Assembly: GCA_046292385.1 (NCBI GenBank) | Contig: JBKBRF010000008.1 | Span: 64,001 to 128,000, forward strand | Origin: Armatimonadota bacterium | GTDB lineage: Bacteria > Armatimonadota > SYMT01 | Length of the DNA stretch: 64,000 bases | Reading direction: 5' to 3' | Shown here: one piece after another, positions 7,143 to 60,167 of the stretch | How the letters are laid out: every line of letters starts with the position of its first letter | How positions within the stretch are numbered: position 1 is the stretch's first letter | The notes under the pieces: generated by a model | What the model saw: only the letters and a program-made list of their open reading frames with translations | The model's database searches: none | Told to the model about the DNA's origin: nothing | Translations under genes and position numbers: made by a program

Positions 7143-7720
7143 GCAGCGTTGGAACCGCGGGACCGACCCCGAGCCCTAGTCGTCCGCTTCAGCCCTCCCG
7201 CGACGTGTGCCCTCCGCCGGCCCTTTCACACTCCGCTTCGCTCCGTTAGCGGGCCGCTCCGGGTGTTCAGCCTGGCATGCTCTTCCCGCGACTCCGCGCG
7301 CTACCGTGACAGAGGCCCAGTTCACGGGCTGAATCGGCCGCCGTCGAGCTACCGCCCCTGACACCCAGGGGCGGTCACAAAGGGCGTCCTCCGGCAGAGC
7401 CTACGGCTCCGCCTCCGAACGCCACTGGATAGGCCTTCGCTCGCGCTACCGAAGGAGCCTGGAGGCGCTGCCGGAGGCAGCGGCGGAAGGCTCCACCTGT
7501 GGGCACCCCTGGAGAGGGGTGGCTGCTTGAGCCCGGCGGAGTGGCCCGTGAGTCGTTGTATCGAAGAAGGCGCAGCGCCCGAACGCGGCGCGCAGGTCCT
7601 CGCCGCGCACGCCCGGACCAGCCCGTTAGCGCCGGAGGCGCGTGGGAGGGCTGAGGGAGGGCCAACCACGCGGGAGGGCCGGTCCGCCGGGTGAGGGCAC
7701 GGGGTGAAACCTCGGGAAGA
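7143..7720 (+). repeat. Large palindromic non-coding element, copy 1 (A unit ~7143-7425 plus inverted B unit ~7455-7720)
   Basis: Colinear with 16752-17422 (rc), 33637-34247 and 59896-60167. Conserved blocks CCGACCCCG.GCCCT, GCCCTCCCGCG, TTTCAC, TAGC, TCACGGGC and ACC.CCCCT..AGGGG.GGTCAC. Confidence 0.9.
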
Positions 7721-7883
7721 AGCGCTTCTCGTGAAGCGGAAGAACACCCCGGAGAAGGCCTCCCACCTCCCCCGCCGAAGTAGTCGATGGCGGCACGCAC
7801 GTTTTCGCCTAAGCAGGAGCCTGCCTGCTCGCCACAATCTAGGTCGGCACGCGCCGGGGCGTGCCGGTTGCCGGAGAGCCGCG

Positions 7884-8957
7884 ATGGCCCTGTTCCTGCA
7901 GATCCTGGGAATCCTGTTCCTCGTCCTGGTGCTGGTGGTGGTGGGAGGCTTCTTCCTGCTGCGCAGCAAGTTCCGCAAGGCGATGTCTGAACTGGTGGCG
8001 CAGGCCGAGGAGATGAAGTACGGGATCACCCCCACCCGCATCCACCTGCGCCGGCGGGACGCCGTGGCGTGGCAGAATCCGGAGGCGGCGGAATCGTACT
8101 CCAGCGCGCTCCTGGCCCTGGGATTCGAGGACGCGGGCAGCTACGACATCGAGGAGCTCGACTTCGTCCGCCTGCGCGGCTTCGCCCACCCGGGGGAGTC
8201 GGTCTACGCCGCCGTCTACGAGCACGAGAAGGCGGGCACGTGGTTCGACCTCGTCAGCTTCTACCAGGACGGCACCAGCGCCACCTACAGCAACGCGCCG
8301 CGCCTGGCGCAGGGGATGGACCAGCGGCCGGGGCATTCCAAGACGTTCGACAACGGCGCCGACCTGCAGACGCTGTTCCAGCGGATGCTGGCGGAGCGCC
8401 CCGGCGGCGCCCTCTCCCCCGCCACGACCTCCGGGTTCGCGAACGCGCTGGAGCGGGCCTACGCGGACCACATGGACTGGCGCCACGCCCGCGGCCCTTC
8501 CGAGGACGAGATCCGGTTCGTCGCCGCCGAGATGGGAGAAGAGCCCTCCGACGAGCAGCTCGCCGAGGTGCGGGAGCAGCTGGAGCTGCAGTCGCTCGCC
8601 GGTCTGGACGAGAGCCTGCGGGAGCGGTTTCTGGAGCAGTCGAGCCTCTCCGCCGCAGAGTGGGAAGCCGTGCGGGAGCGCGTGGTGATCGTCCACGACC
8701 GCCTCAAGCCGGAGATGCTCGCCGAGCGTTACACCGAATGGGTCAACATGTGCGGCGAGTACGCGGAAGAGGAGGACGAGCGGGAAGAACAGGACGACCC
8801 GGAGTACCAGAAGGCGCTCGCCGCCGCCCGCGTCTCCGAGCCCCGCGCCGCCTTCGCCGCCCTGAACGAGCAGCTCCCGGAAGAGAAGCGGTTCCGCCTC
8901 CTCGGCACCGTGACCTACCCCCTCCCCGCAGCCGTCTACGTCGCTCCGGAGGGATAG
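7884..8957 (+). CDS. Hypothetical membrane-anchored protein
   Basis: ATG after GGAGAG, N-terminal TM (FLQILGILFLVLVLVVVGGFFLL), strong GC3 codon bias, no recognised family. Confidence 0.85.
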   Translation: MALFLQILGILFLVLVLVVVGGFFLLRSKFRKAMSELVAQAEEMKYGITPTRIHLRRRDAVAWQNPEAAESYSSALLALGFEDAGSYDIEELDFVRLRGFAHPGESVYAAVYEHEKAGTWFDLVSFYQDGTSATYSNAPRLAQGMDQRPGHSKTFDNGADLQTLFQRMLAERPGGALSPATTSGFANALERAYADHMDWRHARGPSEDEIRFVAAEMGEEPSDEQLAEVREQLELQSLAGLDESLRERFLEQSSLSAAEWEAVRERVVIVHDRLKPEMLAERYTEWVNMCGEYAEEEDEREEQDDPEYQKALAAARVSEPRAAFAALNEQLPEEKRFRLLGTVTYPLPAAVYVAPEG

Positions 8958-8992
8958 GTCAGCTCTTCACTCGCTATCGCCCGTCGGCACTG

Positions 8993-9424
8993 CTACTGAA
9001 CCCCAGCCTGCCTGGCGCGCCGCGCCTCGCGCAGCCTGGCGAGGCGGCGCCGCATGATGCTGGAGTAGGCGCTCCCGACCATCCAGGCGCCGTAACCGAT
9101 CAGCCCGAGCGTGCGCCAGGGTTCTGGAGCGGCAACGATCGAGATGAGTTGGGGAACAGTGCAAGCTCCGGTGAGCACTCCTTCACCCACGAACACGATC
9201 CACGCTGGCAGGAAGCGTCTCAGCTTGGCGCGAGTCTCCGCCGGGTCCGCCCGGCTCCCGGTCCGGCAGAGGTAGATCCCCCACGCTGCGATGATCATCC
9301 ACGCCGCGCCTGGCAAGATCCACCACTCCGGCGCGTGAAGGATCGCCGCCACCTGCAGCGCTAGTCCTCCGAACACCAGGACTATCGCGAGCCCCGCCGG
9401 CGCCATCATCCGAAGAGTGCGCAC
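8993..9424 (-). CDS. Hypothetical small multi-TM membrane protein
   Basis: About four hydrophobic segments, AGGGG RBS-like sequence upstream of GTG. Codon usage is less biased than neighbours and the start is uncertain. Confidence 0.6.
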   Translation of the reverse strand: MRTLRMMAPAGLAIVLVFGGLALQVAAILHAPEWWILPGAAWMIIAAWGIYLCRTGSRADPAETRAKLRRFLPAWIVFVGEGVLTGACTVPQLISIVAAPEPWRTLGLIGYGAWMVGSAYSSIMRRRLARLREARRARQAGVQ

Positions 9425-9715: not shown

Positions 9716-9846
9716 GGCGCGGCCTAACCCCCCAAACCCTCCCCCGTTCGAGGGACAAGCCTCACCAGAGAGGGAAGGGGAAGTTAGCCCGCTAATCACC
9801 AATAGCTCTCCTCTCCCCTCAGGAGAGGGGCCGGGGGTGAGGCCCT
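9716..9846. repeat. REP-like doublet, family R2
   Basis: CGGCGCGGCCTAACCCCCC...TCCCCCGTTCG.GGGACAAGCCT...TAGCTC.CCTCTCC..TCAGGAGAGGGGCCGGGGGTGAGGCCC, colinear with 62354-62484. Confidence 0.85.
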
Positions 9847-12171: not shown

Positions 12172-12173
12172 CC

Positions 12174-15229: not shown

Positions 15230-16425
15230 GGCATGCTCTCCCGTACGGCCGGGGCGCGGTGCCCGCGGAGTCGCTCCGCCACGCCGAGCGGCAGCAGCGC
15301 GGCCGGCTTGCTCTTTCGCGTGACCCAGAGCTGCAGCGCGGCGCGCGCGAAGGCGTAGCTCTTCAGCCGCCAGCGCGGCGCCACGAGCAGCACAAACGCC
15401 AGCATCCCGCTGAGCGTGGGCGGGTAGAGCGCCAGGTAGCGGATGGCGCGCGTGAACATCGTCCGCTCCGCCTTGTACACCTCGTCGCCGCTCATGAAGT
15501 CGTATTCCCGCCGGCCGCTCTCCCACGCGCGCTGGATGGAGAGGCAGTCGAGCACGCCCCCGGGCGAGAACTTGCGGTAGTCCTCGTCGTAGGCGCCCTG
15601 GTAGAGCCAGATCCGCTCCGGCGTGAGGAAGTTGATCTCGAAGGCGACCGGCTGGCCGTCCATCCGGGCGATCCAGAGCTCCATCTCCTCGCCGCCGCCG
15701 AGCGCCAGGAGCGCCCGACGCAGCAGCTCCTGCCCCTCGCCCGGCTGGAACCGCGCCACGCCTTCGCGTCCCTTCCACGAGCGCGCCTCGATCGCCGCCA
15801 CCTCCTCCACGCGCGCCGCCGCCTCCGCGCCGACGTAGCGCTCCACCGTGCCGCCCTCCTTCAGCCACTTGCGGCCGGCCTTCTGCATCCGCTTCAACCA
15901 GCCGGGGCCGCGGGCGCAGAGCGCGGTCCAGTCGGCGTCCATGGCGGTGTACGGAGCGGTAGTCCCCTCCACCCCCGCGGAGCGGAGGCCCTTCGGCGCG
16001 GGGACGCGCGTCAGCTCCGAGTAGCCGTCGCCAAGCTGCCGGAGCACCGCGAGGTCCCATTCCCCGCGGCGGCGCTGAAGCTCGTCCAGCAGCAGCCGCT
16101 CCGCCTCGGGGCAGTCCGCCGCAAAGAGGAAGCCGAGGTAGTCCGAGCGGCCGTCGCCGATGAATCTCAGCACGCGGAAGCCGAGCTGGCGCTCCCGGCG
16201 CAGCGGCGCCACGCCGACCAGCTCCCCGCCGCGCCGGGCGGTGAGCACGTACGGCTCGCAGCCGGCGCAGAGCTGCTCCCAGCAGATCTCGGTCCAGTCG
16301 AAGCTAAGGAATGGGTTGCGGGGAGCGCTCCGAGCGTAGAGCGCTCCCCATTCTTCACGCAGCGCCCGGAGCTCGCCGGGTGTGCGGAGACATTCGATGG
16401 TCGTTCCGGAGTTGTCCAGGGACAT
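15226..16425 (-). CDS. GNAT family protein, CelD/BcsL-like
   Basis: W..LY....NPFLSFDW, LVGVAPL, SDYLGFL, YQGAYDEDYRKFSPG, YDFMSGDEVYK. Confidence 0.88.
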   Translation of the reverse strand: MSLDNSGTTIECLRTPGELRALREEWGALYARSAPRNPFLSFDWTEICWEQLCAGCEPYVLTARRGGELVGVAPLRRERQLGFRVLRFIGDGRSDYLGFLFAADCPEAERLLLDELQRRRGEWDLAVLRQLGDGYSELTRVPAPKGLRSAGVEGTTAPYTAMDADWTALCARGPGWLKRMQKAGRKWLKEGGTVERYVGAEAAARVEEVAAIEARSWKGREGVARFQPGEGQELLRRALLALGGGEEMELWIARMDGQPVAFEINFLTPERIWLYQGAYDEDYRKFSPGGVLDCLSIQRAWESGRREYDFMSGDEVYKAERTMFTRAIRYLALYPPTLSGMLAFVLLVAPRWRLKSYAFARAALQLWVTRKSKPAALLPLGVAERLRGHRAPAVRESMP

Positions 16426-16751
16426 GGCTTGCTTTTATTGGGAGGCCGGCCGCAGCCGGGCCTGTTGCTTGAGTCTCTAGCGCGGACTTTCAGGCGGCTC
16501 CATCGGGCGTCTGACGCCGGAGCCCGGGGCCCGTCGATCCTGCATCCGGCCGATACTACCCCGGCGTCTGGATCTCAAACCCTTCCCCGGGAACGGAGCG
16601 GGCGCTCTTGCCGGGAGCGGTTCCCTTGCGAGCGCCGGGAGGGCTTGCGGTTTAGGTGGGGGCGTGCCGGGTAGAAGGGAGTGGCCGGCCGGTTCGCGGC
16701 TGGGTTGCAATCCAGCGTGTGAAGGCGAGGATGACCTCATCTTGCAGGAAG

Positions 16752-17422
16752 CGGCATCTCTTCGAAGTTCCACCCCGTGCCCTCACCGGGGGGAGCGGCC
16801 CTCCCGCGTGTTTGGCCCTCCCTCAGCCCTTTCACGCTCCGGCTGCGCCTCCGCTAGCGGGCTGGTCCGGGCGTGCTCTTCGCCAGGCTGTGCTCCGCGT
16901 TCGCAGGCTGCGGTGTCTCCATCACGGCGACTCACGGGCCGCTCCCCCCGGCTCAAGCAACCACCCCTCGCCAGGGGTGGTCACAAGGGGAGCCCTCCGC
17001 CGCTGCCTTCGGCCGCGCCTCCGTGCTCCTTTGGACTGGCTGGCTGCGTCGTGACTGGCTCGGTAGTCCAGAACTCGGACGTCCAGAGGGGCAGCCGCAG
17101 GCTGGACCGGAGGACGGCACCTGTGACCACCCCTGGGCGCCAGGGGTGGTCGCTCGACGGCGGCCGGTTCAGCCCGTTAACCCGGGTTTTGGTGAGATGG
17201 GGGGCCGTGGCGCGGGAAGAGCTTCACGCGGCGCACTCCCGGAGCGGCCTGCTAGCGGAGGCGAAGCCGGAGCGTGAAAAGGCCGCGGAGGGCTCTCGCC
17301 GCGGGAGGGCTGAACCGACCGACTAGGGCGCGGGGTCGGTCCGGCGGTGCCGACGCCGCTCTGAGTTCAGAAATGCCCCGTGTCCGAGTGAGGGCACGGG
17401 GTGGAACCCCGGGGAGATGCCG
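16752..17422 (-). repeat. Large palindromic non-coding element, copy 2 (reverse orientation, extra B-type end)
   Basis: Reverse-complement homolog of 7143-7720. Bounded by a perfect 20-bp inverted repeat GTTCCACCCCGTGCCCTCAC (16767-16786 / 17388-17407). Confidence 0.9.
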
Positions 17423-17474
17423 TCACCGGGAAGTAATCCTACAGAAACGGTCAAGAGAAGAGACAAAGAACACG

Positions 17475-18692
17475 ATGCGCATCCTCCTCCTCACCAGCTA
17501 CTTCCCCCGCTCCACCGACCCGGTGCGCGGCATGTTCAACTACCAGCAGGCGCACGCGCTGGCGCGGCACTGCGAGGTGAAGGTGGTGGCGCCGGTGCAG
17601 TGGTTCCCGGTGCGACTCTGGCACGGGGCCGGGCCGGACTCCGCCCCGTACCGGGAGACCGTGGGCGAGCTGACCACGTGGCACCCGCGCTACTTCCTGC
17701 CGCCGCGGATTGGGCGGGACTTCTACTCGCTGCAGATGGCGGCGTGGGTGCTGCCGCGGTTGGCCCGCATCCGGCGGGAGTACCCGTTCGACGTCCTCCT
17801 CGCCACCTGGGCGTTCCCGGACGTGATCGTCGGCGCGCTGGCCGCGCGGTTGTGGAACGTGCCGCTGCTGGCGAAGGTCCACGGCAGCGACATCAACGTG
17901 CAGACCGACTTCCCCCTGCGGCGAAAGCAGATCCGCTGGGCGCTGGACCAGGCGCACCGGGTCCTCGCGGTGAGCGGCGCGCTGCGCGAGCGGCTGATCG
18001 GCCTCGGCGTGCCGGCGGAGCGGATCATGGTCCACCACAACGGGGTCGACCGCGAGCGCTTCCGCCCCGGTGACCGCGCGGAGGCCCGTCGTCATCTGAA
18101 GATCCCGGTCGAGGGGAAGGCGCTGGTCTACGTCGGCTACATGAATCCACCCAAGGCGGTGAACGTGCTGATCGACGCCCTGGGGGAGCTGCGCGCCTCC
18201 GGCCGGCTCGACTTCACCGCACACCTGGTCGGCTGCGGCCCGCTCAAGGAGGACCTGGAGGCGCAGGCCCGCTCCCTCGGGCTGGCGGAGTCGGTCGTCT
18301 TTCACGGTCGCCGGCCGCACGACGAGATCCCGCACTGGATGCGCGCCGCGGACGTCTTCTGCCTCCCGAGCATCCGGGAAGGCTGCCCGAACGTGGTGCT
18401 GGAAGCGCTCGCGAGCGGCTGCCCGCTCGTCTCTACGAGGGTCGGGAGCGTGCCGGATATGGTCGACCCTACCGCCGCCGTCCTCGTCCCGCCCGGCGAG
18501 TCCTCCCCCCTGGCGGAGGGGATCCGCACGGCGCTCGACCGGCAGTGGGATCCGGAGGCGCTGCGACGCAGCGTGAGCCACTACGACTGGGATACCAGCG
18601 CCCGCGCCCTCTACGAGGCGGCGTGCGAGGCGGTAGAGCTGCGGAGGGCGCCCCAGCCGGAGCGAGCGCTCGCGGCTAACTCGGAGGGGTAG
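17475..18692 (+). CDS. GT4 family glycosyltransferase (TuaC-like)
   Basis: MRILLLTSYFP, KVHGSDIN, HNGVDRERFRP, ADVFCLPSIREGCPNVVLEALASG (E-x7-E). Confidence 0.93.
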   Translation: MRILLLTSYFPRSTDPVRGMFNYQQAHALARHCEVKVVAPVQWFPVRLWHGAGPDSAPYRETVGELTTWHPRYFLPPRIGRDFYSLQMAAWVLPRLARIRREYPFDVLLATWAFPDVIVGALAARLWNVPLLAKVHGSDINVQTDFPLRRKQIRWALDQAHRVLAVSGALRERLIGLGVPAERIMVHHNGVDRERFRPGDRAEARRHLKIPVEGKALVYVGYMNPPKAVNVLIDALGELRASGRLDFTAHLVGCGPLKEDLEAQARSLGLAESVVFHGRRPHDEIPHWMRAADVFCLPSIREGCPNVVLEALASGCPLVSTRVGSVPDMVDPTAAVLVPPGESSPLAEGIRTALDRQWDPEALRRSVSHYDWDTSARALYEAACEAVELRRAPQPERALAANSEG

Positions 18693-18694
18693 AG

Positions 18695-18828
18695 CTTCCG
18701 GGCGGTTGAAACCGCGGCAACCACGGCACGAAGTCCCCCTCCGGGGACTCGGGACAGCCTGGTTCGGGCGTCCGGAGGACGCTTGGCCGCAGGCCGCACA
18801 GCGAGGTATTCTAATGCCTCGCGGCCCG
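18695..18828 (+). repeat. REP-like composite repeat, family R3
   Basis: CTTCCGG.CGGTTGAAACCGCGGCAACCACGGCACGAAGT...CGTCCGGAGGACGCT...GCGAGGTA..AATGCCTCGCGG. Homologs at 36663-36816 (rc) and 56856-56920. Confidence 0.85.
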
Positions 18829-19079
18829 GCGCGCGGCTATCCGGCCGCTTCCGCTGCGGCTACCGCCGGGCGAGCTGATCCAGCTTCTGCTCCACCACGC
18901 CGATACCGCAGAGCAGAAGCCCGGAGACCCGGCGTTCCCCCGATGAGCCCCCCTTCTCGCTCCATTGGTACTTCCCGTATGGCACCAGCCGGTCCGTATC
19001 GAACCAACCGGTATGCGTTCCTCCGCTGCTCACGGGTGAGCGCGACGGTACGAGGGCGGGAAGCGCGGCGGGTGGACCG

Positions 19080-19790
19080 ATGCTAGAGATCAGGCACAAG
19101 CGTTCCGGAAAGCTCCTCTACCGCAGTGACGACTGGAGAGTCGACGCCCGCGGGCGGGAGCTCATCGGCGCTCACCTGTCCGGATGGAGCCTGCGGGAGG
19201 CGCGACTCCGTGGCGTCGATCTCCGCGGCAGCAGCCTGGACGGTGCGGACCTGAGCGGTGCCGATCTGCGCGGTGCCCGTTTTCGCGGAGCCTCCTTTCG
19301 GGATGCCGTTGCCATCCCCGCGGGTGCGCTGGCCGCACTACTCCTGGCGTTTGCCGGGACCACTCCGTCGATCTGGCGGAACTGGTGGCTCAACCCGAGT
19401 CTCTACTTCGGGGTGATGGTGGCCGGCGCACTGGTCGTTTCACTCCGCTCGGACCGGGCGCTCTTTGAAGACGCCACCCTGGACGGCGCACAACTGGACG
19501 GTGCCCACTACGACCGAGAGACCACCTGGCCGCGCGGCTTCGATCCCCAGGCTCATGGCGCCGTGCGGGTCCAGCCCGCCGCGGCCGCGAGCCGGGGGCC
19601 GTTCTCGATCCTGAAGCGGATCGACCTTTCGCTGGTCGTCGCGGCGCTCCTCGCCTGCTCCGCGGTCGGGTTCATCGTCGTCGGCTTCGAAGACGGGAAT
19701 TGGCTGCGCCTTTCGGCAGGCATCTCCAACACGTTCATGGCGGGGTGGCTCCTCTGGTCCCGCCGTCGAGTTGCCGGGGAGGCGGAGTGA
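19080..19790 (+). CDS. Pentapeptide-repeat membrane protein
   Basis: A(D/R)LxG pentapeptide tract, GAHYDRETTWPRGFDPQAHGA cap motif, several TM segments. Confidence 0.8.
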   Translation: MLEIRHKRSGKLLYRSDDWRVDARGRELIGAHLSGWSLREARLRGVDLRGSSLDGADLSGADLRGARFRGASFRDAVAIPAGALAALLLAFAGTTPSIWRNWWLNPSLYFGVMVAGALVVSLRSDRALFEDATLDGAQLDGAHYDRETTWPRGFDPQAHGAVRVQPAAAASRGPFSILKRIDLSLVVAALLACSAVGFIVVGFEDGNWLRLSAGISNTFMAGWLLWSRRRVAGEAE

Positions 19791-19964
19791 CCGCGGCGGA
19801 AGTCGAGGAGCTCGAGGGGCGCTGTCTGGAGCGAGCGCGGGCGCAGCCTCTCATCGCCGCGACAGGCTACCTGCCGGTGCTGGATGCAGGAGGCGTTCCG
19901 CAGCGTGGTCGCGGAGACAGGCGCGTAGCCGCCGAGGTTTCGGAGCTACCGGAGCAATCAGAGC

Positions 19965-20543
19965 ATGCTAACGCGAACGCACTTGTCGCTCGTCCTCGTG
20001 GCGCTGCTCACCTTCTCCGGCAGTCTTCTCATCATCGGGGGAGTTCACGGTGGTGGATGGCTCCGGCTCTCGACCGGGGTCTGCAACGTGATCGTGGCCG
20101 GCGTGATCCTCCGGGGCCTGCTCCGGCCGGCTGGACCCGGGCCCGAACCAGTATGGCACGGGCAATCGGATCCGAGTGTGACGCCGCCGGACGGCGCCTT
20201 CGGAGTGAGCCCTCCGCAAGAGCGGCAGCGGACGTTGCGCTGGCTGCGGAGCCTTACTGACAAGGGATTCGCCGAGCTCTTCTACGAAGCGGTGAAAGAT
20301 CGTAAAACGGACGGTGGCTACGGACACTTCGTCCTGGCCGAGGCAGCGAGACGTGACCTCATAGAAGGTCCCTGGGACGTTGACTTCATCGGGCTCCATG
20401 ATCGAGAGCACTACGGCGGCGAGTGGGACGACGATGCCCCAATCTGCCAATCCGGAACCTGCCGCGAGTGTGGAGTTGACGTGCGAAGCTGGGCTAAGGA
20501 AGCAGTGTGTCCAGTCTGCGGCTCCAAGGTGTACGGAACCTAG
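19965..20543 (+). CDS. Hypothetical protein: N-terminal 2-TM hairpin plus C-terminal Zn-ribbon-like CxxC...CxxC
   Basis: ATG with GGAG upstream, CRECG...CPVCG, atypical codon usage. Confidence 0.6.
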   Translation: MLTRTHLSLVLVALLTFSGSLLIIGGVHGGGWLRLSTGVCNVIVAGVILRGLLRPAGPGPEPVWHGQSDPSVTPPDGAFGVSPPQERQRTLRWLRSLTDKGFAELFYEAVKDRKTDGGYGHFVLAEAARRDLIEGPWDVDFIGLHDREHYGGEWDDDAPICQSGTCRECGVDVRSWAKEAVCPVCGSKVYGT

Positions 20544-20557
20544 AGCCGTCGGGAACG

Positions 20558-20599
20558 CTTCGGCGGGTGCCTGCGGTGGATGAAAGGCACCCGCCGAAG
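20558..20599. terminator. Perfect 15-bp stem-loop between convergent genes (likely bidirectional terminator)
   Basis: CTTCGGCGGGTGCCT / AGGCACCCGCCGAAG with a 12-nt loop. No strong U tract. Confidence 0.6.
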
Positions 20600-20611
20600 T
20601 ATCTCCTACTC

Positions 20612-21022
20612 CTATCGCACCACCAGGACGGAGCACTCCAGGCGGTCGACGACCGACTTGGCGGTGCTGCCGAGGAAGAACTCCTCCAGCGCGCCGACGC
20701 CGCGGTGTCCGACGACCACCAGGTCGTAGCTCCCTTCCTTGGCGGCGAGGACGATCGCGTCGTCGGGCGCTTCGACGGAGACCTGCGCGTCGGCGGTGAC
20801 GCCGCTCTCGCGGGCGCGAGCCGCTCCGGATTCGGCGCAGCGGCGGCCGAGGTCCTCGTCGGCGGACATGGTGACCACGCCGTCCTCGCGGACCAGGCGG
20901 TCGGAAGCGGCGGTGAGCACGGTGAGGGAGGCGCCGCACGCCTTCGCCAGCTCGATCGCCCGGTCGAGGGCATGGGTGGCGGCTTCGGAGCCATCATAGC
21001 CGACGAGAATGCGCTGGATCAT
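20612..21022 (-). CDS. Universal stress protein (Usp family)
   Basis: MIQRILVGYDGS, DLVVVGHRG...FFLGST, CSVLVVR. Confidence 0.95.
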   Translation of the reverse strand: MIQRILVGYDGSEAATHALDRAIELAKACGASLTVLTAASDRLVREDGVVTMSADEDLGRRCAESGAARARESGVTADAQVSVEAPDDAIVLAAKEGSYDLVVVGHRGVGALEEFFLGSTAKSVVDRLECSVLVVR

Positions 21023-21912
21023 CGTTTCCGTCCTGCCGCGGGGTAGATCAGGTAGACCTGCCGGCCCGTTTCCGCGGCGAGTAGATGCCCGGTGCCGGTA
21101 GTCACGTAGAGCGTAGAAAGGGTCGGACCGCCCCAGGTGCAGTTGGTGGGACGGTCGTACGGTACCGGGTGCGTGGCGAGCACCCGGCCCGTGGGGCTGA
21201 AGACGTAGATCATCGGGCCGGGGCCGCTCTCGGCCCAGCCGGCGGTCGCCACGATGTTGCCCTCCGCGTCCAGGCACATCCCGTCGATGCCGCGGTGCGG
21301 ATAGAAGTTGTGGAGCACGCCGTGCTCTCCCAGGGAGCCGTCGTCGTGGATCGGGTAGGCGCGCAGCTCCCGCTTGCGATCGGCGCCGTACTCGCTCTGC
21401 GCCACGTAGAGCGTCCGTCCGTCCGGAGAGACCAGCAGTCCGTTCGGCCGGGTGGTGTCCCAGGTGACCCGGTGCAGGCTCCAGCCGCCGTCCGGCTGCG
21501 GGTCGGCGCGGTAGACCGACTCGTGATCCAGCTCCATGTCCTCGCGGAAGTCGCCGTAGCGAGGATCGGTGAACCAGAGGCGGCCCTGCGGATCGAAGGC
21601 GAGGTCGTTCGGGCTGTTCAGCCGCCTGCCTTCGAACCGGTCGGCGATCACCGTCTCACCGTCCGCGTCGTAGCGTACCACGCGGCGCTCGCCGCCCCCG
21701 CCCTGGCAGCCGTAGAGGCGGCCGTCGGCGTCGAAGATCAGGCCGTTCCCCTCGAAGGTGCCCTCGCGGTAGACCGTCGTCTCGCCGGTCTTCGGGGAGT
21801 AGCGCATGATGCGGCTGGCGGGGATGTCGGCGAAGAGCACCGCCTCACCATCCCACGCCGGCCCCTCCGCGAAGCCGACCGGCCCCGCCACCGTCTCGAA
21901 GACCCAGTCCAT
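21019..21912 (-). CDS. SMP-30/gluconolactonase family protein
   Basis: FAEGPAW, RLNSPND, WFTDPRYG, RPNGL, GIDGMCLD, PTNCTWGG. Confidence 0.92.
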   Translation of the reverse strand: MDWVFETVAGPVGFAEGPAWDGEAVLFADIPASRIMRYSPKTGETTVYREGTFEGNGLIFDADGRLYGCQGGGGERRVVRYDADGETVIADRFEGRRLNSPNDLAFDPQGRLWFTDPRYGDFREDMELDHESVYRADPQPDGGWSLHRVTWDTTRPNGLLVSPDGRTLYVAQSEYGADRKRELRAYPIHDDGSLGEHGVLHNFYPHRGIDGMCLDAEGNIVATAGWAESGPGPMIYVFSPTGRVLATHPVPYDRPTNCTWGGPTLSTLYVTTGTGHLLAAETGRQVYLIYPAAGRKR

Positions 21913-21936
21913 CCGTCTCGCCCTCTCTGCCCGGCG

Positions 21937-22287
21937 TCAGGCGCTGAGCTCGCTGAAGATCTGGTCGGTCTTCGCCGCGGAGATGAAGTCGTTCCGGTGC
22001 AGGCCGCGGATCTTGTGCGTCCACCAGCTCACCGTCACCCGCCCCCACTCGGTCAGGATCGCCGGATGGTGGCCTTCGTCCTCCGCGAACTCCCCTACCC
22101 GGTTCGTAAAGGCGAGTGCCTCGGCGAAGTTCTTGAACTTGAACTGTCGCTCCAGCCGCGGGATGCCGTCCTTTTCCAGCAGCTCCCACTCCGGAATCTG
22201 CGGCTTCAGCTCGGCGATCTCCGCCTCGGTCACTCTCGGGGCGTCGGCACGGCATGCAGTACACTTTTCGCTGGTCAGCTCTGCCAC
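21937..22287 (-). CDS. phhB: Pterin-4-alpha-carbinolamine dehydratase
   Basis: [53 protein letters not shown]. Confidence 0.93.
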
Positions 22288-22340
22288 GTGAATCTCTCCT
22301 CCTGTGGGGGCTAGTGGGTCGAAGGGCCGGGGTCTTCGGT

Positions 22341-22450
22341 GGGGCCTCACCCCCGGCCCCTCTCCTGAGAGGAGAGGGGAGCTACGGGTGTTTTGCCTGC
22401 CTGGCCTCCCCCTTCCACTTCAGGAAAGGGGGTTGGGGGGTTAGGCCGCG
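22341..22450. repeat. REP-like doublet, family R2
   Basis: GGGGCCTCACCCCCGGCCCCTCTCCTGAGAGGAGAGGGGAGCTA ... CCCCTTCCACTTCAGGAAAGGGGGTTGGGGGGTTAGGCCGCG. Confidence 0.85.
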
Positions 22451-22600
22451 AAAGAACGCCGACCCATCGTCCTCCCCCTGAAACCCGACCCCTGATCCCT
22501 GCCCTTCACGTGGTATATTCTGTCCTCGTTCATGGTTCCCTGTCGCGGCAGCGATGCCGCGCCTGTTTCGCCGCTGGAGATGCGGCCGGAGGTGAGCTCG

Positions 22601-22837
22601 ATGCCCGTTCCCGTGCGCCAGGCCGATATGGACGCCGTCTTCCGCGTGACCGACGAGCTGGGGATCCACCGGGAATCGGTGACGGTGCCGCTGGCACGCC
22701 AGGATCCGGGCGGGGTGAAGGACCTGGGCGGCGGGCAGCTCCGGATCACGCTGCCGGAATCCGAGGAGCCGGACGCCTGGGCGGAGGGCACGCTGCGGGG
22801 GGAGCTGGAGAAGCTCGGCTACGAGCCGCTTCCGTGA
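22601..22837 (+). CDS. Small hypothetical protein (78 aa)
   Basis: GGAGGTGA RBS before ATG, strong GC3 bias. Confidence 0.75.
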   Translation: MPVPVRQADMDAVFRVTDELGIHRESVTVPLARQDPGGVKDLGGGQLRITLPESEEPDAWAEGTLRGELEKLGYEPLP

Positions 22838-22957
22838 TCGCGGCGGTCGCCGGCGGAACCGCCCGCGCGGGGGACCGGTATTCAGTGCATGGCAGGGCGG
22901 CGCGCGACGCCGCGCGCGGGGGGCGGCCCCGGCGCCACTCCCTCTGCCGGTTCTCCT

Positions 22958-23830
22958 ATGCTCAATAACCTGCGCGAGCTCTGGAAGTTCCGCGAGCTGC
23001 TCATCATCCTGGTCCGGCGCGACCTGAAGATCCGGTACAAGAACTCGGTTCTCGGCTTCGGCTGGTCGCTGCTCAACCCGCTGGCGCAGGTGCTCACCAT
23101 CACGCTGGTGCTCAAGTTCCTGGGCGCGCAGGGGGTGACGGAGAACTACCACGCCTACGTCTTCTGCGCGCTGCTGCCGTGGCTCTTCTTCAGCACCGCC
23201 ACGATGGACGCCGGGATGTCACTGGTGGCGTTCCACGACCTGCTCCGGCGCGCCTACTTTCCGCGGGAGGCGCTGCCGCTCACCACGGTCGCGGCGAACT
23301 TCATCCACTTCCTGCTCGCGATGGGCGTCTTCCTGGTCTACGAGACGCTCAACCCGCTCTTCTGGTGGGTGGTGGATGGCAAGTTCAACTTCCCGATCCA
23401 GCCGACCGTGGTGCTGACGGTGATCCCGATGGCGGGGCTCTTCCTGCTCGTCTCCGGGATCGCGATGTTCATCTCGGTCTGGACGCTCTACTTCGAGGAC
23501 GTGCGCTACCTGGCGGACAGCGGCATGAAGATCCTCTACTGGCTGGTGCCGGTGCTCTACTTCCCGGAGCTGATCCTGCACCGGGACCCGGGCGGCCGCG
23601 GGGAGCTGATTTACACGCTCTACATGCTCAACCCGCTCTCCGCCTTCATCACCAGCTTCAAGAAGCTCACCCTGCCGCCGACGAAGTCGCCCGGCGGGGA
23701 GTGGATGACCACGCCGATGGGCGCGCAGGACTGGGGCTTCCTGGGGATCGCCATGGTGGTGTCGCTCGTCTTCTTCCTGCTGGCGCACCGCTACTTCAAC
23801 GCCCGAAAGTGGAAGCTGGCCGAACGTTAA
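22958..23830 (+). CDS. wzm: Polysaccharide ABC exporter permease (Wzm/TagG family)
   Basis: RRDLKIRYKNSVLGFGWSLLNPL, YFPRE, PVLYF, LNPLS. Confidence 0.93.
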   Translation: MLNNLRELWKFRELLIILVRRDLKIRYKNSVLGFGWSLLNPLAQVLTITLVLKFLGAQGVTENYHAYVFCALLPWLFFSTATMDAGMSLVAFHDLLRRAYFPREALPLTTVAANFIHFLLAMGVFLVYETLNPLFWWVVDGKFNFPIQPTVVLTVIPMAGLFLLVSGIAMFISVWTLYFEDVRYLADSGMKILYWLVPVLYFPELILHRDPGGRGELIYTLYMLNPLSAFITSFKKLTLPPTKSPGGEWMTTPMGAQDWGFLGIAMVVSLVFFLLAHRYFNARKWKLAER

Positions 23831-23952
23831 ACTCAGTTGCAGGTGGTCAGGTTGCAGGTTTCAGGTTGGCTGCTAACGATGGAATGAGCCAGTCCGCGGA
23901 TCGGCTGCACCTTAAACCCTAAACCCTAGGCCCTAGACCAGACCCTCTCCCC

Positions 23953-24723
23953 ATGACGATGCCGATCATCGAAGCGCGCGACCTCCAGAAGGAGTTCACC
24001 CTGGAAATGGGGCCCGGCTCCATCAAGCGGCTCATCCTCACCGGCCGCCGGGGCGAGCGGCGGCACGTCCACGCGCTGCGCGGGATCACGTTCTCGATCC
24101 AGCCGGGCGAGGCGGTGGCGCTGGTCGGCCGCAATGGCTCCGGGAAGAGCACCTTCCTGAGCCTGGTCGGCCGCATCTACCTCCCTACCTCCGGCACGCT
24201 TTCGGTGCGCGGTCGCGTGGCGCCGCTGCTGCAGCTCGGGGCGGGGTTCCACCCGGACCTGACCGGCCGGGAGAACATCGAGTGGAACGGGGTGATCCTG
24301 GGGCTCACCCGCCAGCAGGTGAGGGAGCGGACGCCGGAGATCGTTCGCTTCGCGGAGCTGGAGCGGTTCATCGACGCTCCGCTCCGCAGCTACAGCTCCG
24401 GCATGATGATGCGCCTCGGGTTCGCAATCGCGGCGCACACCGATTCGGAGATCCTGCTGGTCGACGAGGCGCTGGCGGTCGGCGACGAGCACTTCCAGGA
24501 GAAGTGCTTCGCCCGCATTCAGGAGCTGATCGCCGCGGGGCGCACCGTGCTCTTCGTCTCGCACGAGATGACCGACGTCACGCGCGTGGCGCGGAGGGCG
24601 ATCTGGCTGGACCAGGGCCTGGTGCGGATGGACGGCCCTCCGGAAGAAGTAGTGGAGGCCTACCTCGCCGACGCGCGCGCGCCGAGTGAGGTCACCGCCG
24701 GCGCCGTGACGACGGCGGAGTAG
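23953..24723 (+). CDS. wzt: Polysaccharide ABC exporter ATPase (Wzt/TagH family, no C-terminal carbohydrate-binding domain)
   Basis: GRNGSGKST, YSSGMMMRLGF, LLVDEALAVGD. Confidence 0.94.
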   Translation: MTMPIIEARDLQKEFTLEMGPGSIKRLILTGRRGERRHVHALRGITFSIQPGEAVALVGRNGSGKSTFLSLVGRIYLPTSGTLSVRGRVAPLLQLGAGFHPDLTGRENIEWNGVILGLTRQQVRERTPEIVRFAELERFIDAPLRSYSSGMMMRLGFAIAAHTDSEILLVDEALAVGDEHFQEKCFARIQELIAAGRTVLFVSHEMTDVTRVARRAIWLDQGLVRMDGPPEEVVEAYLADARAPSEVTAGAVTTAE

Positions 24724-24728
24724 CGCGC

Positions 24729-25670: not shown

Positions 25671-25868
25671 GGTCGGCAGAGTGTAAGAAAAGGAGATGTG
25701 GGGATGAAAGCTGGGGATATGGCGATGGGAACCAGCGGGTGAGCAGGCCCGACCCTCTCATCGACGCGTTAGAATTCAGCCTTTAGCCTTTTGCCTTTAC
25801 TATCCCCTCATCCCCGTTCCCACATCCCCCCATCCCCTGAAAGGTTCGGGCTCTCTTCGCTCGCTGAC

Positions 25869-27002: not shown

Positions 27003-27117
27003 GATCGAGACCCCTGCGGTGAGAGCACGAGGAAGCGGCTGGAGCGCGGCCGCATTGGCGGTGCGCTGGACATGTTAACAGGGTATACGCGCGGCGGGGC
27101 TCCCGCAACTTGAGTAT

Positions 27118-27357
27118 GCGGTGCGGAGTGAACTCCGCGGATTGGTTCCGCCGGAGGTCAACCTCCGGCGATCTAAGCGCGGCGGGGCTGGCGCCCCGGA
27201 GGGGCGCGAGCGGATAGCCGGGGGTCAGCGTAGCGCAGCCCCCGGATCCCGAGCCGCGACCACGTTCCGCCCTGGATGGGCGGGAGGAATACTCGGGAAG
27301 CGGTGCGGAGTGAGCTCCGCGGGTTGGCTTCGCCGGCAGTCAACTGCCGGCGATCTA
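27118..27357. repeat. Two direct copies of a ~58-nt double-hairpin unit flanking a REP-like palindrome
   Basis: 27118-27175 and 27300-27357. Between them lies GCCCCGGAGGGGC...CCGGGGGT..GCCCCCGG. Confidence 0.8.
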
Positions 27358-27460
27358 GCTCTCCCCGCGCCGTGGTGCAGCGCAGCGCGATCCGCGGAAC
27401 GGCTCGAACAGCTGCCTCCGCCGCTCGCTCTCTGTCGCTCCGTCCCTCTGTCTCTCCGTC

Positions 27461-29380: not shown

Positions 29381-29407
29381 CTCTGGAGAATCCTGTCCCG
29401 ACCTCAA

Positions 29408-30208: not shown

Positions 30209-30492
30209 GTATACCCAGCCAGGCCCTCGTTTTGTAACCAGCCGCTCGCCTCTGTGGGACCCCGTATCATGGATTACCCGGGAACGGCCCTGGCGCGTAC
30301 TAAAGAATGATGCAGACCCCGGGGAGCGACCGAGGTTCCCGTGCCGACGATTCGGTCCGCGCGAGACGGCGTACAGAGTAAATACCTTCCGGAGCGGGCA
30401 TGTGCCTCTGCCGGAGTCGGATTGACCCGAAAAAACCAAAGAGGGAGCGCGAGGCTCCCTCCAGTCCGGTCTGCTCCTGGTGGAGCGGCAGG

Positions 30493-33422: not shown

Positions 33423-33636
33423 TCCTGGGCCTCTCCCTTTCATGGTGCGTGAGTCGGGGTCTGGAGCTGTCGAGGACGAGTGGCTCCGGCGGCTGCAACC
33501 GGCGTCTTAGTCCCCTCTGTGCTGCTCACGCCGAGATTCCTCTAAGGATGCGCAGATTCTGCCGGCGGTTATCGCGCCCGTGACCTTGCAAAAGGGGAGG
33601 GGCCGGTCTGGAGGCGTCTTTGCTTCTCTTCGAGAT

Positions 33637-34247
33637 GCAGCATCGAGCCCGCGACCCGACCCCGCGCCCTTGTGCCGGGAGGCAGCCCTCCCGCGACGCA
33701 GGCCCTCCGCGGCCTTTTCACACTCCGCTGCGCTCCGTTAGCAGGCCGCTGCGGGAGTAGGCTCCGGTAAGCCCATCCCGCGCCAGGAGGCGTAACCCGT
33801 GCCGACAGGGAAGCTCACGGGCTGCCTCCCGACCCTTCGAGCGACCACCCCTGCCACCCAGGGGTGGTCACAACTGGCGCCCTCTGGGCGCCTGCGGTCT
33901 GGGCACGCTCGGCAGCCGACGGGCTACCGCGAGCCGGTCCAGCACGACCGGGCTTCGCGCCCCCGGGCGTGGGGATCTGCGAAGGCCGGAAGCGCTGCCG
34001 GAGGCAGGGCTGGAGGGTTTCACCTGTGACCACCCCTGCGAGGGGTGGTCGCTTGAGCCGCCCGGAGCGGCCCGTGAGTCGCCGCATCGCCACTACCGCA
34101 GGCCACAAACGCGGAGCGCAGCCTACCGAAGTGCACGCCCGGAGCAGTCCGCTAGCGGAGCCGCAGGCGGAGCGTGAAAGGACTGCGGGAGGGCCAAACA
34201 CGCGGGAGGGCCGCTCCGGGTGGGGAGGGCGCGGGGTGGACCCTCGG
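33637..34247 (+). repeat. Large palindromic non-coding element, copy 3
   Basis: Colinear with copy 1. Hairpins GACCACCCCTG/CAGGGGTGGTC (33843-33869) and GACCACCCCT/AGGGGTGGTC (34028-34050). Confidence 0.9.
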
Positions 34248-34647
34248 CGCGATGCTGATCTCGACTAACCAAGCATTCTCCCGCCGCCTGGAGGTTGGGT
34301 GCGGCATCAGCCGCGTGGTGAGTCTGTCGAACGCTTTCTCGTGAATTCGACAGTCTCCCCGACGAGTTTCTCTTGCCAGAAGGAGACGCGCAGCGGGAGT
34401 GCTCGGCGCCTCTCCCGGCACTACGGTCCTGCCACGAGGAAGCGGCCTCTCGCTGCGGAACACGCGATACGCACTACGCCCCCACCCGCCCCGCGGCAGC
34501 ATCCCACGGTTCCGGGCACGGCTCACCACCAAGGACAACCCGCAGCGAACCCGTGATACAAATGGTTCGGCCTGGCGGGCCTGGCTCCGGCGAGAGGAGC
34601 CCCGCCTGCCGACACAGATTTTTCCGCCGGCGGACCGGGAGTCTCCG

Positions 34648-36647: not shown

Positions 36648-36662
36648 CGGGGGCAGGATCCG

Positions 36663-46355: not shown

Positions 46356-46427
<72 letters not shown>

Positions 46428-46454
46428 GTGTCTGGGGCTTTAACCCGGATCCAG

Positions 46455-46536
46455 TGGGCGAGGAGGGACTCGAACCCTCACGGATTGCTCCACTAGATCC
46501 TAAGTCTAGCGCGTCTGCCAATTCCGCCACTCACCC
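46455..46536 (-). tRNA. tRNA-Leu(TAG)
   Basis: GGGTGAGTGGCGGAATTGGCAGACGCGCTAGACTTAGGATCTAG..., long variable arm, GGTTCGAGTCC. CCA not encoded. Confidence 0.97.
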
Positions 46537-46553
46537 CCGGGTGGTGCCGGCGA

Positions 46554-46626
<73 letters not shown>

Positions 46627-56669: not shown

Positions 56670-56920
56670 GCCGCCTCGGACTGAAGTAGTCGGGGCTACC
56701 GGTGCGTTCTTCCTTTTCCCGGCTGCCCCCCCTCGACTGAAGTCGGGGCTACACGGAGCAAAGCCCGCCTTCGCGGGCTGAGTGATGCTTGATCGGCAGC
56801 CTGGCAGCTCTCGTGTCCTCCTCCCTGGCGCTACTCCGCAGAAGGCGCCGGAGTTGGGGCGTCCGGAGGACGCTTGGCCGCAGGCCTACCAGCGAGGTAT
56901 TTCCAATGCCTCGCGGTCCC
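56670..56920 (+). repeat. REP-like cluster related to family R3
   Basis: GACTGAAGT..TCGGGGCTAC twice, AGCCCGCCTTCGCGGGCT, then GGGCGTCCGGAGGACGCTTGGCCGCAGGCC...GCGAGGTATT..AATGCCTCGCGG matching 18766-18824. Confidence 0.8.
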
Positions 56921-58304: not shown

Positions 58305-58314
58305 AGAGAGCTGC

Positions 58315-59760
58315 TTATCCGAAGAGGGCAGTGACCGGCCGGCCGCCCTCGATGAGCGGGGTGGGCCGGCCTTCCGGGTCGGGGACGTGCATGTGGGGGT
58401 CGAGGCCGAGCGCCTGGTAGAGGGTGGCCGCGAGGTCTTCCGGGCTGACCGGGTTCTCGGTGGGGAATGCCGCTTCCGCGTCGGAGGCGCCGTAGCATGT
58501 GCCGCCGCGAACGCCGGCCCCGGCAACCAGCGCCGGGAAGAGGGTGCTCCAGTGGTCGCGGCCCCAGCGGCCGTTCGCCTTCGGAGTCCGGCCCATCTCG
58601 CCCAGCATCACGACCAGCGTCTCATCGAGCAGGCCGCGGTCGTGGAGGTCTTCCAGCAGCGCGGAGGCGGCCTGGTCGGTGGTCGGCATCAGGTGCTTCG
58701 TGACGTCGTCGCTGTGCACGTGGGAATCCCAGCTATAACCGTCGCAGCAGTCGTAGTGGACCGTTACGAAGCGGACCCCCGCTTCCACCAGGCGGCGCGC
58801 CATCAGGCACGACTGCCCGAAGAGGTGCCGCCCGTAGCGGTCCCGCAGCGCGGCCGGCTCTTCCTTCAGGTTGAGGGCGCGGTAGGTGCGGTCGGAGCAG
58901 GCGAGCCCGAGGGCGCGCTGACGGAAGCGGTCGAAGCTCGCGACGGTGGTGTCGGCGTCCAGCAGCCGACGGCGGTCGTCGAGCTGCTCCAGCAGGCCGC
59001 GGCGGCGCTCCAGGCGGTCGAGCCGCACCTCGCCGCGGGACGACTGCCCCTGGAGCTGGAACGTCAGCTCCTCGTCGGTGCAGTCCCGCCAGTACGGGTT
59101 GTCCTTCAGGTCCCGCTTGGCGACCGCCGTCGTGAGCGGGTTGTAGGCCTTGCCGAGCCAGCCGGCGTGCTCACCCGGCCGGGGGTACTGCCCCGCTTCC
59201 TGCAGGATGCCCAGGGAGTTGGGGAGGACCATGTAGGCCGGCAGAGTGCGGGCGGCACCGCCGGACGCCTGCTGCGCCGCGTACTCCACCGCGGAGCCGA
59301 TGGAGGGCCAGTCCTTCGGTGTGGGGCTGAAGCCGCCGCCGATCGGCACGTGCCAGCGGTGACCGGTCTGGATATAGTGGGCGCCCCCGCTGTGATCGTT
59401 GAAGTCGTGCGTCATCGTGCGGATGACGCAGTAGCGGTGCGAGAGCTGCGCGAGCTTCGGGAGCGATTCGGAGACGAGCAGGCCGGGCGTCCGGGAGGGG
59501 ATCGGCTTGTAGGGTCCGCGGATGCTGCTGGGAGCGTCCGGCTTGAGGTCGAACGTCTCGAGCTGGCTGGGCCCGCCGAAGAGAAAGAGGAAGATCACGC
59601 TCTTCGCGCGGGCTCCCCGCGGCGGTGCTCCCCGAAGCTCTTCCGCGGCCAGCACGCGCGGCAGGCTCAAGCCAAGCAGCCCGGTCCCGGCAGCCTGGAG
59701 GAGCTGCCGGCGCGCGGTGCCGTCGCAGGCGCGTCGCGGGCGGGAGGTGATCGAGAGCAC
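58315..59760 (-). CDS. DUF1501 family protein
   Basis: RRQLLQ leader, GGPSQLETFDLKP, ARRLVEAGVRFVT, WDSH, GEMGRTP, GRDHW. Confidence 0.93.
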   Translation of the reverse strand: MLSITSRPRRACDGTARRQLLQAAGTGLLGLSLPRVLAAEELRGAPPRGARAKSVIFLFLFGGPSQLETFDLKPDAPSSIRGPYKPIPSRTPGLLVSESLPKLAQLSHRYCVIRTMTHDFNDHSGGAHYIQTGHRWHVPIGGGFSPTPKDWPSIGSAVEYAAQQASGGAARTLPAYMVLPNSLGILQEAGQYPRPGEHAGWLGKAYNPLTTAVAKRDLKDNPYWRDCTDEELTFQLQGQSSRGEVRLDRLERRRGLLEQLDDRRRLLDADTTVASFDRFRQRALGLACSDRTYRALNLKEEPAALRDRYGRHLFGQSCLMARRLVEAGVRFVTVHYDCCDGYSWDSHVHSDDVTKHLMPTTDQAASALLEDLHDRGLLDETLVVMLGEMGRTPKANGRWGRDHWSTLFPALVAGAGVRGGTCYGASDAEAAFPTENPVSPEDLAATLYQALGLDPHMHVPDPEGRPTPLIEGGRPVTALFG

Positions 59761-59895
59761 GCGGGATCTCCGGGGTGGCGGTTGCTCTTATCAGAGTTTC
59801 GGGAGGGGCTGCGGTTTCGCGGGAAACGGGCATTCAGCCGTATCCATGGGCGCTCGATCGGTCGGACGCCTCTGGTGGTGGATCTCTTCCCCTGG

Positions 59896-60167
59896 GCAGC
59901 GTCGAGTCCGTGGCTCCGACCCGCGCCCTTGTCGGCGGAGACAGCCCTCCCGCGGCGAGTGCCCTCCGCGGTCTTTTCACGCCCTTCGGGCTAGCAGACC
60001 GCTCCGGGAGTCCGCCCCGTGTGGCTCTTCCCGCGTCACTGCGCTCTACCGCGTCAATGGTAGGGTTCACGGCCTGTCTCCGCCGCCTTCGAGCGAGCCC
60101 CCTGCGCCCAGGGGGCTCACAGGTGGCGTCCTGCGGCCCAGCCTTCCGGCTGTGCCTCCGGACGCCG
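59896..60167 (+). repeat. Large non-coding element, copy 4 (A unit only)
   Basis: Colinear with 7143-7425. Hairpin GAGCCCCCTG/CAGGGGGCTC (60095-60118). No B unit follows. Confidence 0.85.

Follow-up and report, generated by a model that had tools for sequence, protein, structure and literature searches.

The window analysed here, a 64,000-nucleotide stretch that corresponds to positions 64001-128000 of contig C8 in an Armatimonadota genome assembly (G000; 7.04 Mb in 91 contigs, 69% G+C), carries four loci of a repeat family whose members are built from a structured module of approximately 285 nucleotides (nt). A covariance model identifies exactly seven units of this family in the window, arranged as three inverted doublets (loci E1 to E3) and one single unit (E4), and repeat finding within the window also returns all four loci (Table 1). 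An original prediction made from the letters of this DNA had described three full copies and one copy carrying only the type of unit called A, and each of these four was recovered at nearly the same position. Its right-hand end for E2, at 17422, is explained by an additional 50-nt fragment of a type B tail that sits just outside the A unit of this doublet. At E1, the facing 5′ ends of the A and B units are separated by a gap of 13 nt. The E3 locus is more elaborate. It begins with a left end of approximately 105 nt, after which come the A unit and, across a spacer of 52 nt, the B unit, followed by a right-end tail that extends to position 34320.

Table 1. Members of the repeat family and associated features in the window (window coordinates)
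Feature	Position	Strand	Basis or remark
E1 type A unit	7132..7430	- (folding, G-rich strand)	nhmmer; model core 7165-7424, 231 bits
E1 type B unit	7444..7736	+	nhmmer; model core 7453-7706, 184.6 bits
E2 type B unit	16740..17039	-	nhmmer; model core 16771-17030, 209.8 bits
E2 type A unit	17069..17365	+	nhmmer; model core 17077-17337, 232.1 bits
E2 extra 50-nt B-type 3′ tail fragment	17384..17433	+	inverted copy of 16741-16786
E3 left-flank motif TCTGT	33516..33520	+	conserved in young 'shell' subfamily
E3 composite, 800 nt	33521..34320	+	homology: 12 aligned copies
E3 type A unit	33627..33921	folds on -	inside composite
E3 type B unit	33974..34268	folds on +	inside composite
E4 single type A unit	59884..60179	-	model core 59917-60167, 202.2 bits

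No conserved reading frame exists among the copies. Their core lengths are distributed among the three classes modulo 3 as 42/42/40, and the gap runs in their alignment are dominated by single-nucleotide gaps (802 runs of length 1 modulo 3, 173 of length 2 modulo 3 and 143 multiples of 3). Stop-free frames on the C-rich strand arise from composition alone. A protein-coding function was therefore rejected for want of any conserved frame, and it is in this sense that the earlier description of the elements as non-coding holds. Similarly, neither E1 nor E3 contains a promoter-like or terminator-like site, and for this reason a role as a carrier of intrinsic terminators or promoters was rejected as well.

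The genes that adjoin the copies in the window are ordinary, and encode SMC, GNAT acetyltransferase, glycosyltransferase, glyoxalase, aldolase, DUF1501 and AMP-binding enzyme proteins. No transposase was present among 16 scanned open reading frames (ORFs) of the window, which include those flanking the four loci and were drawn from approximately 40 crude gene calls. The earlier statement that the window lacks a transposase is thus supported for the genes beside the copies, all 16 being ordinary, whereas its whole-window part is covered for 16 of the approximately 40 calls.

Two types of unit and their heterotypic doublets

Searches of the genome with the four loci by BLAST produce 120 merged loci that together occupy 0.56% of the assembly, and whose lengths are bimodal, at approximately 250-300 nt and 600-650 nt. 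A profile built from the seven half-units yields 147 nhmmer matches genome-wide and the covariance model yields 145, numbers well above those that chance would give, and therefore the family proposed from four loci does extend throughout the genome. The 147 nhmmer matches resolve into 117 loci, of which 87 are single units, 28 are convergent ('+-') doublets and 2 are pairs of fragments.

We examined 128 near-full units, 124 of which could be assigned to one of two types. Type A is represented by 69 copies (42 single and 27 in doublets) and type B by 55 (28 single and 27 in doublets). The mean distance is 0.25 within type A and 0.22 within type B, compared with 0.36 between the types, which agrees with the earlier observation that an A unit resembles other A units more than it resembles its own B partner. 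Intact doublets consist of one A and one B unit in 26 of 26 instances, an outcome with a chance of approximately 1e-8 under random pairing. In every doublet, the 5′ ends of the two folding strands face each other, and the units are thus directed away from the middle of the element.

Within a doublet, the A and B halves resemble each other no more than do A and B units taken at random (mean distance 0.365 versus 0.362). However, the halves co-diverge from doublet to doublet (Mantel r 0.72, p about 2e-4), and doublets must therefore have been copied as doublets. Whole-doublet relatives can also be aligned directly: E1 has two at approximately 79% identity that have its central spacer in common, and the subfamily to which E3 belongs includes 12 aligned copies that exhibit 80-89% identity to E3 over approximately 800 nt. 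Single units nevertheless form the majority (70 of the 124 typed units), and at least five elements of approximately 400 nt that carry only a B unit have the same two ends as the A+B composites of approximately 800 nt. The basic unit is therefore the module of approximately 285 nt, with a core of approximately 260-285 nt. Thus, the proposal that the doublet is what propagates proved correct in so far as doublets are copied intact, but they are neither the sole nor the main form of the family.

One unit is a hybrid of the two types (locus L040; G000:C10:64738-65051), in which a middle portion of B type is enclosed by 5′ and 3′ portions that are A-like. Its existence indicates that the two types recombine at least occasionally.

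A conserved fold on the G-rich strand

When folded as an alignment, the G-rich strand (the reverse complement of the orientation in which A units were originally described) reaches -76 kcal/mol, versus -47 kcal/mol for the C-rich strand. The alignment of 46 sequences supports 59 consensus base pairs, 26 of which exhibit compensatory changes, and the resulting model has a core of 259 positions whose 59 pairs are distributed among 11 helices. The predicted fold includes a 5′ hairpin, a closing helix, a CCCC/GGGG hairpin, several inner helices and a covarying long-range helix of 15 bp, in which most positions switch among G-C, C-G, A-U and U-A pairs. Across all 124 typed units, 93.3% of the pair cells remain paired. 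Read on the G-rich strand, 682 cells hold G-U and 109 hold A-C combinations, and this excess identifies the G-rich strand as the one under constraint.

Compensatory change is also evident between nearest copies within the genome. Among 56 independent nearest-neighbour pairs of units (mean divergence 14%), we counted 119 compensatory double changes, whereas approximately 30 doubles are expected under independence, along with 34 non-compensatory doubles, 150 single changes that keep a pair and 158 that break one. The rate of change per site is 0.098 at paired positions and 0.175 at unpaired positions. The folding energies of individual sequences are not exceptional, with z scores of -1.67 for the G-rich strand and -1.23 for the C-rich strand.

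The same fold is retained in 21 units from two related genomes that belong to two other genera (G005 and G006), where 91.6% of cells are paired and 27 of the 59 pairs have changes on both sides. None of 500 shuffles scored as high and slid controls reached 44-51%, in an alignment that was fitted to the model and hence favours the structure. Comparison of the window with Rfam 15 recovers only three tRNAs, no family reaches its gathering threshold on the units, and nothing credible is found on E1 or E3 even at E values up to 10. There was likewise no match in a plasmid collection, and a narrow literature search on Armatimonadota repeats and non-coding RNA returned no description of the repeat family. 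The original prediction was therefore accurate on two further points: this is a structured single-strand family with no Rfam 15 counterpart, and it is much larger than a repetitive extragenic palindromic (REP) sequence.

Genomic surroundings and distribution

A crude gene call based on GC3 covers 74% of the genome, and 114 of the 128 near-full units overlap a called gene by no more than 60 nt, which places them in intergenic regions. All seven units in the window lie upstream of a gene, with their folding strand in the sense of that gene. Genome-wide, however, the downstream gene has the same sense as the folding strand for 63 units and the opposite sense for 65. The uniform pattern in the window is thus a coincidence, and a function as a 5′ leader or riboswitch was rejected. 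Eight further units, all in one orientation, occupy the intergenic spacers of a prophage (G000:C40:17000-36000) whose terminase, portal, major capsid and tail genes were recognized by eye.

The distribution of the family is narrow. Copy numbers obtained with the covariance model (R1) in seven genomes of the same bacterial family are 145 (G000), 15 (G005), 8 (G006), 0, 0, 0 and 0, and the repeat occurs in 3 of 151 sampled genomes of the phylum, including none of the 144 that lie outside this one Armatimonadota family. Units cluster by genome rather than by locus, and A and B appear as sister clades in a tree whose root is placed by midpoint only. G005 has two clades of its own, which do not correspond to the types of G000, and its doublets are again heterotypic and head-to-head in 4 of 4 cases. 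The 29 proteins encoded next to units in the relatives are ordinary and varied, and reveal no gene theme. Four units of G005 reside in a type I-E CRISPR-Cas locus (L079; G005:C3:825000-842000), where two lie between cas1 and cas6e and the other two lie on the far side of a stretch that lacks genes, adjoins cas2 and is possibly the array.

Multicopy genes for a structured non-coding RNA (ncRNA) with a cellular role could produce some of these patterns, if the copies were dispersed long ago and have since been kept in place by selection. Such genes would be expected to retain their structure, as is seen in the 93% of pair cells that are kept despite 22-25% divergence within types, in the compensatory changes found even between nearest copies, in the slower change of paired sites and in the conservation of the fold in three genera; the lack of near-identical copies agrees with this explanation also. 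A 253-nt contig from an RNA library resembles a B unit, which is a weak hint only because such libraries can contain DNA, and short public contigs over 16000-35900 provide no usable expression evidence. Against a cellular role stand the contrast between approximately 145 copies in one genome and 0-15 in its relatives, the even split in orientation relative to adjacent genes (63 versus 65), the lack of promoter-like or terminator-like sites in E1 and E3, the copies within a prophage, the clustering of units by genome instead of by locus and the transposon-like ends of a young subfamily that are described below. On balance, we consider this explanation unlikely.

Ends of the young 'shell' subfamily

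The E3 composite belongs to a young subfamily with recognizable outer ends, here termed the shell. The left end starts with ACTACTCACCG and is preceded by TCTGT, whereas the right end finishes with GGCATCAGCCGCGCTGTG, and the cargo between them is either a B unit alone or a reverse-complemented A unit followed by a spacer and a B unit. Both shell ends are present in 19 elements, of which five are approximately 400 nt long, ten are approximately 800 nt long and four measure 500-900 nt. At positions -5 to -1, the TCTGT motif is conserved in 19-25 of 30 pattern matches, depending on the position, and this conservation is confined to the young subfamily. The two ends are asymmetric in that they are not inverted repeats of each other, and the CTGT-like motifs found at the left and right of shell elements do not co-vary. 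Eight of the 19 elements are located in or beside short tandem arrays of the CTGTGT type (counted by eye from the flanks), and it is these arrays that supply the TCTGT in those cases.

No flanking direct repeat or target duplication is present at the 19 shell elements. No target duplication is detectable either around 33 A singlets, 24 B singlets and 20 doublets, where old duplications could have decayed. The longest word shared between the two flanks measures 6.39, 6.46 and 6.15 in three classes of element, and the respective values for mismatched-pair controls are 6.32, 6.46 and 6.24.

Asymmetric ends, a short conserved motif in the left flank and a lack of target duplication are features that might be expected of palindrome-associated transposable elements (PATEs) derived from insertion sequences (ISs) of the IS200/IS605 type. 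If the shell elements have this origin, then the module could be an omega-RNA-like scaffold for a TnpB- or IscB-type nuclease that acts in trans. In addition, the B module of shell elements reads toward the right end, and a read-through transcript would consequently end in the flank, which fits the layout of TnpB omega RNAs as given in PMC10055086. However, the A module of composites reads out through the left end, unlike that mechanism, and most copies of the family lack shell ends altogether. Moreover, searches of G000 with two Pfam models for TnpB (PF07282 and PF01385), whose positive controls worked, revealed no such gene. There was also no match to the RRXRR model for IscB-type proteins (PF14239), although this is a weak negative because the control was silent in every genome. 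Rfam likewise provides no match, its known guide scaffold families included. A guide-RNA scaffold derived from PATEs is therefore distinctly improbable.

Search for a partner enzyme

The genome encodes five HUH enzymes of the Y1 type, two of them IS200-like and three resembling REP-associated tyrosine transposases (RAYTs). Neither a left-end nor a right-end match occurs near any of the five genes, and no TnpA gene lies between matching ends in the 91-contig assembly. The IS200-like gene on contig C51 (G000:C51:25800-26400; L001:1424-1995) encodes a protein of 141 amino acids with HUH and Tyr motifs. The 39-nt inverted repeats of this gene contain the hairpin GCGAGGGGTTGAAAACCCCTCGC, a classic RAYT/REP-like layout that is distinct from the units.

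Other candidate enzymes were sought with equally little success. No reverse transcriptase gene was found in the genome. An IS91-type Y2 gene was not found either, a weak negative given that the control was silent everywhere, and the two IS110-type genes that are present have no link to the units. Among metagenome contigs, the strict form of the unit pattern gave 0 matches. A pattern scan of genome contigs was uninformative, because the 68 matches listed include no unit and are chance matches only.

The original prediction drew an analogy with REPINs, which are doublets of REP sequences, and their RAYT enzymes. A giant system of this kind, in which the module takes the role of the REP sequence and is served by one of the three RAYT-like enzymes, would be consistent with inverted doublets that spread as units, with a fold specific to one strand, with persistence within one bacterial family and with the presence of three RAYT-like and two IS200-like Y1 genes. 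The analogy fails in other respects. Units do not surround any of the five Y1 genes, the unit is approximately ten times the size of a REP sequence and has many helices, and singlets outnumber the units found in doublets. The arms of the doublets differ by 36%, as much as A and B units paired at random, and consequently they do not form the long hairpin of the kind that defines a REPIN. We regard a giant REPIN as quite unlikely.

A transposase gene bracketed by two units

A relaxed form of the unit pattern identified one record among the metagenome contigs, L155. It carries a gene for an IS4/Tn5-like transposase of 474 amino acids with a unit on either side, the two units being inverted relative to each other. 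This arrangement would suit a scheme wherein the doublets are miniature inverted-repeat transposable elements (MITEs), produced by internal deletion of a DDE-type IS in which the A and B modules serve as the long terminal inverted repeats. The outer ends of doublets are inverted homologous sequences, as the scheme demands. However, the transposase gene of L155 lies between an inner inverted repeat of its own, starting GCTAATC, that coincides with the precise centre of the palindrome formed by the units, and the gene is therefore a nested insertion. A homologue with 42% identity in L163 has the same GCTAATC start to its repeat. Moreover, 0 of 31 other loci that encode homologues hold a credible unit (the best matches score 12.5 bits with an E value of 0.014 and 14.3 bits with an E value of 0.027), and with that query no homologue was found in G000. 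The IS4-like parent was accordingly rejected. With no parent IS and no target duplication at A singlets, B singlets, doublets or shell elements, the derivation from a DDE element is largely refuted and must be considered highly improbable.

The IS4/Tn5-like family itself (L155:742-2246; L163, L165 and L184) was detected in 25 of the 401 genomes sampled from the phylum, and its ends start with GCTAA. In at least two unrelated genomes it occurs precisely in the middle of GC-rich palindromic repeats, which suggests that this IS family targets palindrome centres. A second element, which is present in high copy number and has terminal inverted repeats starting ATACTGTTGGCGAAATCAGC, is also repeatedly encountered in hairpin loops, including that of the CCCC/GGGG hairpin in several B and A units. 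There are 66 termini of this element in G000 (e.g. C68:1-400, C51:49180-49485, C32:80600-80912 and C22:111560-111983), of which 42 run into contig ends (182 ends in all), and its interior is unassembled.

A proposed mobile module and its alternatives

The four explanations weighed above (structured RNA genes of the host, a scaffold for an RNA-guided nuclease, a REPIN system of giant size and a MITE of DDE origin) rank below a reading in which the units constitute a gene-less, lineage-specific mobile repeat. This repeat would be built on a single-strand fold that is under selection, and would most likely be moved in trans by an HUH-type enzyme. We hold this reading with about as much doubt as confidence. 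Under such a mechanism, copies would move as single strands that are handled by one of the five Y1 enzymes of the genome, in a manner that may resemble the peel-and-paste movement of IS200/IS605-type elements, with insertion occurring 3′ of TCTGT. The fold might be preserved because units without it cease to be propagated, or because the module has an additional role as RNA. Long palindromes are unstable in bacteria, and the survival of heterotypic pairs only could reflect the near-perfect palindrome of more than 500 bp that two units of one type would form.

Several observations weigh against a mobile repeat of this description. No Y1 gene is flanked by units in G000, where the nearest unit is 5.1 kb away, and none adjoins a unit in G005 or G006. 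On contig C51, the 39-nt inverted repeats beside the Y1 gene are its own and differ from the units. A Y1-type transposase needs only small hairpins at the ends, which leaves a fold of 59 pairs in three genera unexplained, and the hairpins at the left and right ends of shell elements are unlike each other and thermodynamically unexceptional (z -1.35 and -1.13). Older subfamilies, including E1, E2 and E4, end approximately 45 nt beyond the core and lack the shell ends. No pair of ends more than approximately 900 nt apart, and hence no autonomous copy, was found in the 91-contig assembly, where one could be unassembled. Short public (Logan) contigs over 16000-35900 include no junction that bypasses either E2 or E3; no empty site was thus seen, and the shell ends are deduced from homology alone. 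There is also little sign of recent activity, in that no two copies are identical and each differs from its closest relative by a median of 15.5%. Finally, the orientation of units relative to GC skew (45:25, p 0.018 uncorrected) is a weak trend that carries no weight, and it places the C-rich rather than the folding strand on the skew-positive strand, opposite to what the IS608 model would predict.

Alternatively, a single-strand system not yet described could use the module as its scaffold. It might function as the RNA or single-stranded DNA partner of an unrecognized transposon-associated effector, or as a self-propagating heterodimer replicator. In the latter form, two complementary module types of a structured RNA or DNA (A and B in this genome, and an independently arisen pair in G005) would make up an obligate heterodimer. 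Head-to-head heterotypic pairs are found in two genera whose types do not correspond (26 of 26 and 4 of 4), and heterotypy would thus reflect function and not only the avoidance of palindromes. Even so, a system of this sort strikes us as improbable.

A fold that has been kept through hundreds of compensatory changes implies that some protein reads it or that it acts as RNA. If the mobile-repeat reading is true, the family represents a selfish repeat akin to REPINs or PATEs that is based on a folded module far larger and more intricate than any described, and that occurs in a little-studied phylum. The repeats also offer a landmark for strain typing, and in this lineage they give rise to false 'novel ncRNA' calls.

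Comparison with known systems

Bacterial interspersed mosaic elements (BIMEs) of Escherichia coli are composed of Y and Z palindromic units in alternating orientation. The Armatimonadota family is similar to BIMEs in having two unit types in a fixed relative orientation, but differs in scale, in the elaborate nature of its fold, in phylum and in the lack of known binding proteins. HEARO, GOLLD and ROOL are orphan large structured bacterial RNAs represented in Rfam. The module is comparable to these RNAs in size and in its rich covariation, whereas it has no match in Rfam 15, a far higher copy number and a scattered distribution without gene context. As with MITEs derived from DDE elements, the copies are short, gene-less and numerous and have inverted outer ends, but they exhibit no target duplication and no parent element was found.

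REPINs with RAYT transposases are described as inverted doublets that replicate as a unit, coexist with many singlets and persist for long periods in a lineage (Bertels and Rainey 2011, PMC3116915; PMC3337134). Measured against those accounts, the family parallels REPINs as a set of gene-less intergenic repeats with doublets copied as a unit, many singlets, lineage persistence and a logic of single-strand hairpins. It differs in that the unit is approximately 285 nt with 59 pairs rather than a palindrome of 20-40 nt, the arms are of two diverged types, and no cognate Y1 gene lies between copies of the repeat. Elements of the PATE and IS200/IS605 type with omega RNAs (Meers et al. 2023 preprint, PMC10055086) also lack protein genes and target duplications. 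The ends of the young subfamily are asymmetric and their hairpins fold, which may correspond to the asymmetric ends and subterminal hairpins of PATEs, and this subfamily alone has in common with them a short conserved motif that adjoins the left end and a structured, RNA-like cargo that reads toward the right end. In contrast to PATEs, most copies of the family have no such ends, the hairpins of the left and right ends are dissimilar, the cargo can be an inverted pair, and neither a TnpA gene with matching ends nor a TnpB or IscB gene was found.

Other repeats and genes in the window

The window holds several additional repeats and a group of RNA genes. A palindromic repeat of approximately 165 nt is located at 31938-32110; its arms consist of short tandem units of the CGTATT type, and dozens of copies with 70-85% identity are present in the genome. 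Positions 35746-35858 correspond to a separate family of approximately 115 nt with about 35 genome copies. Hairpin repeats of 50-70 nt, with the sequence GGGCCTCACCCCC...CCCCTCTCC...GGAGAGGGG, appear in both orientations at 3124-3174, 9797-9845, 22341-22410 and 62415-62485. Another family of 40-110 nt that is unrelated to the units occurs at 18695-18831, 36661-36815 and 56853-56901, with copies that are up to 98% complementary. Lastly, three tRNA genes are clustered on the minus strand at 46356-46626.

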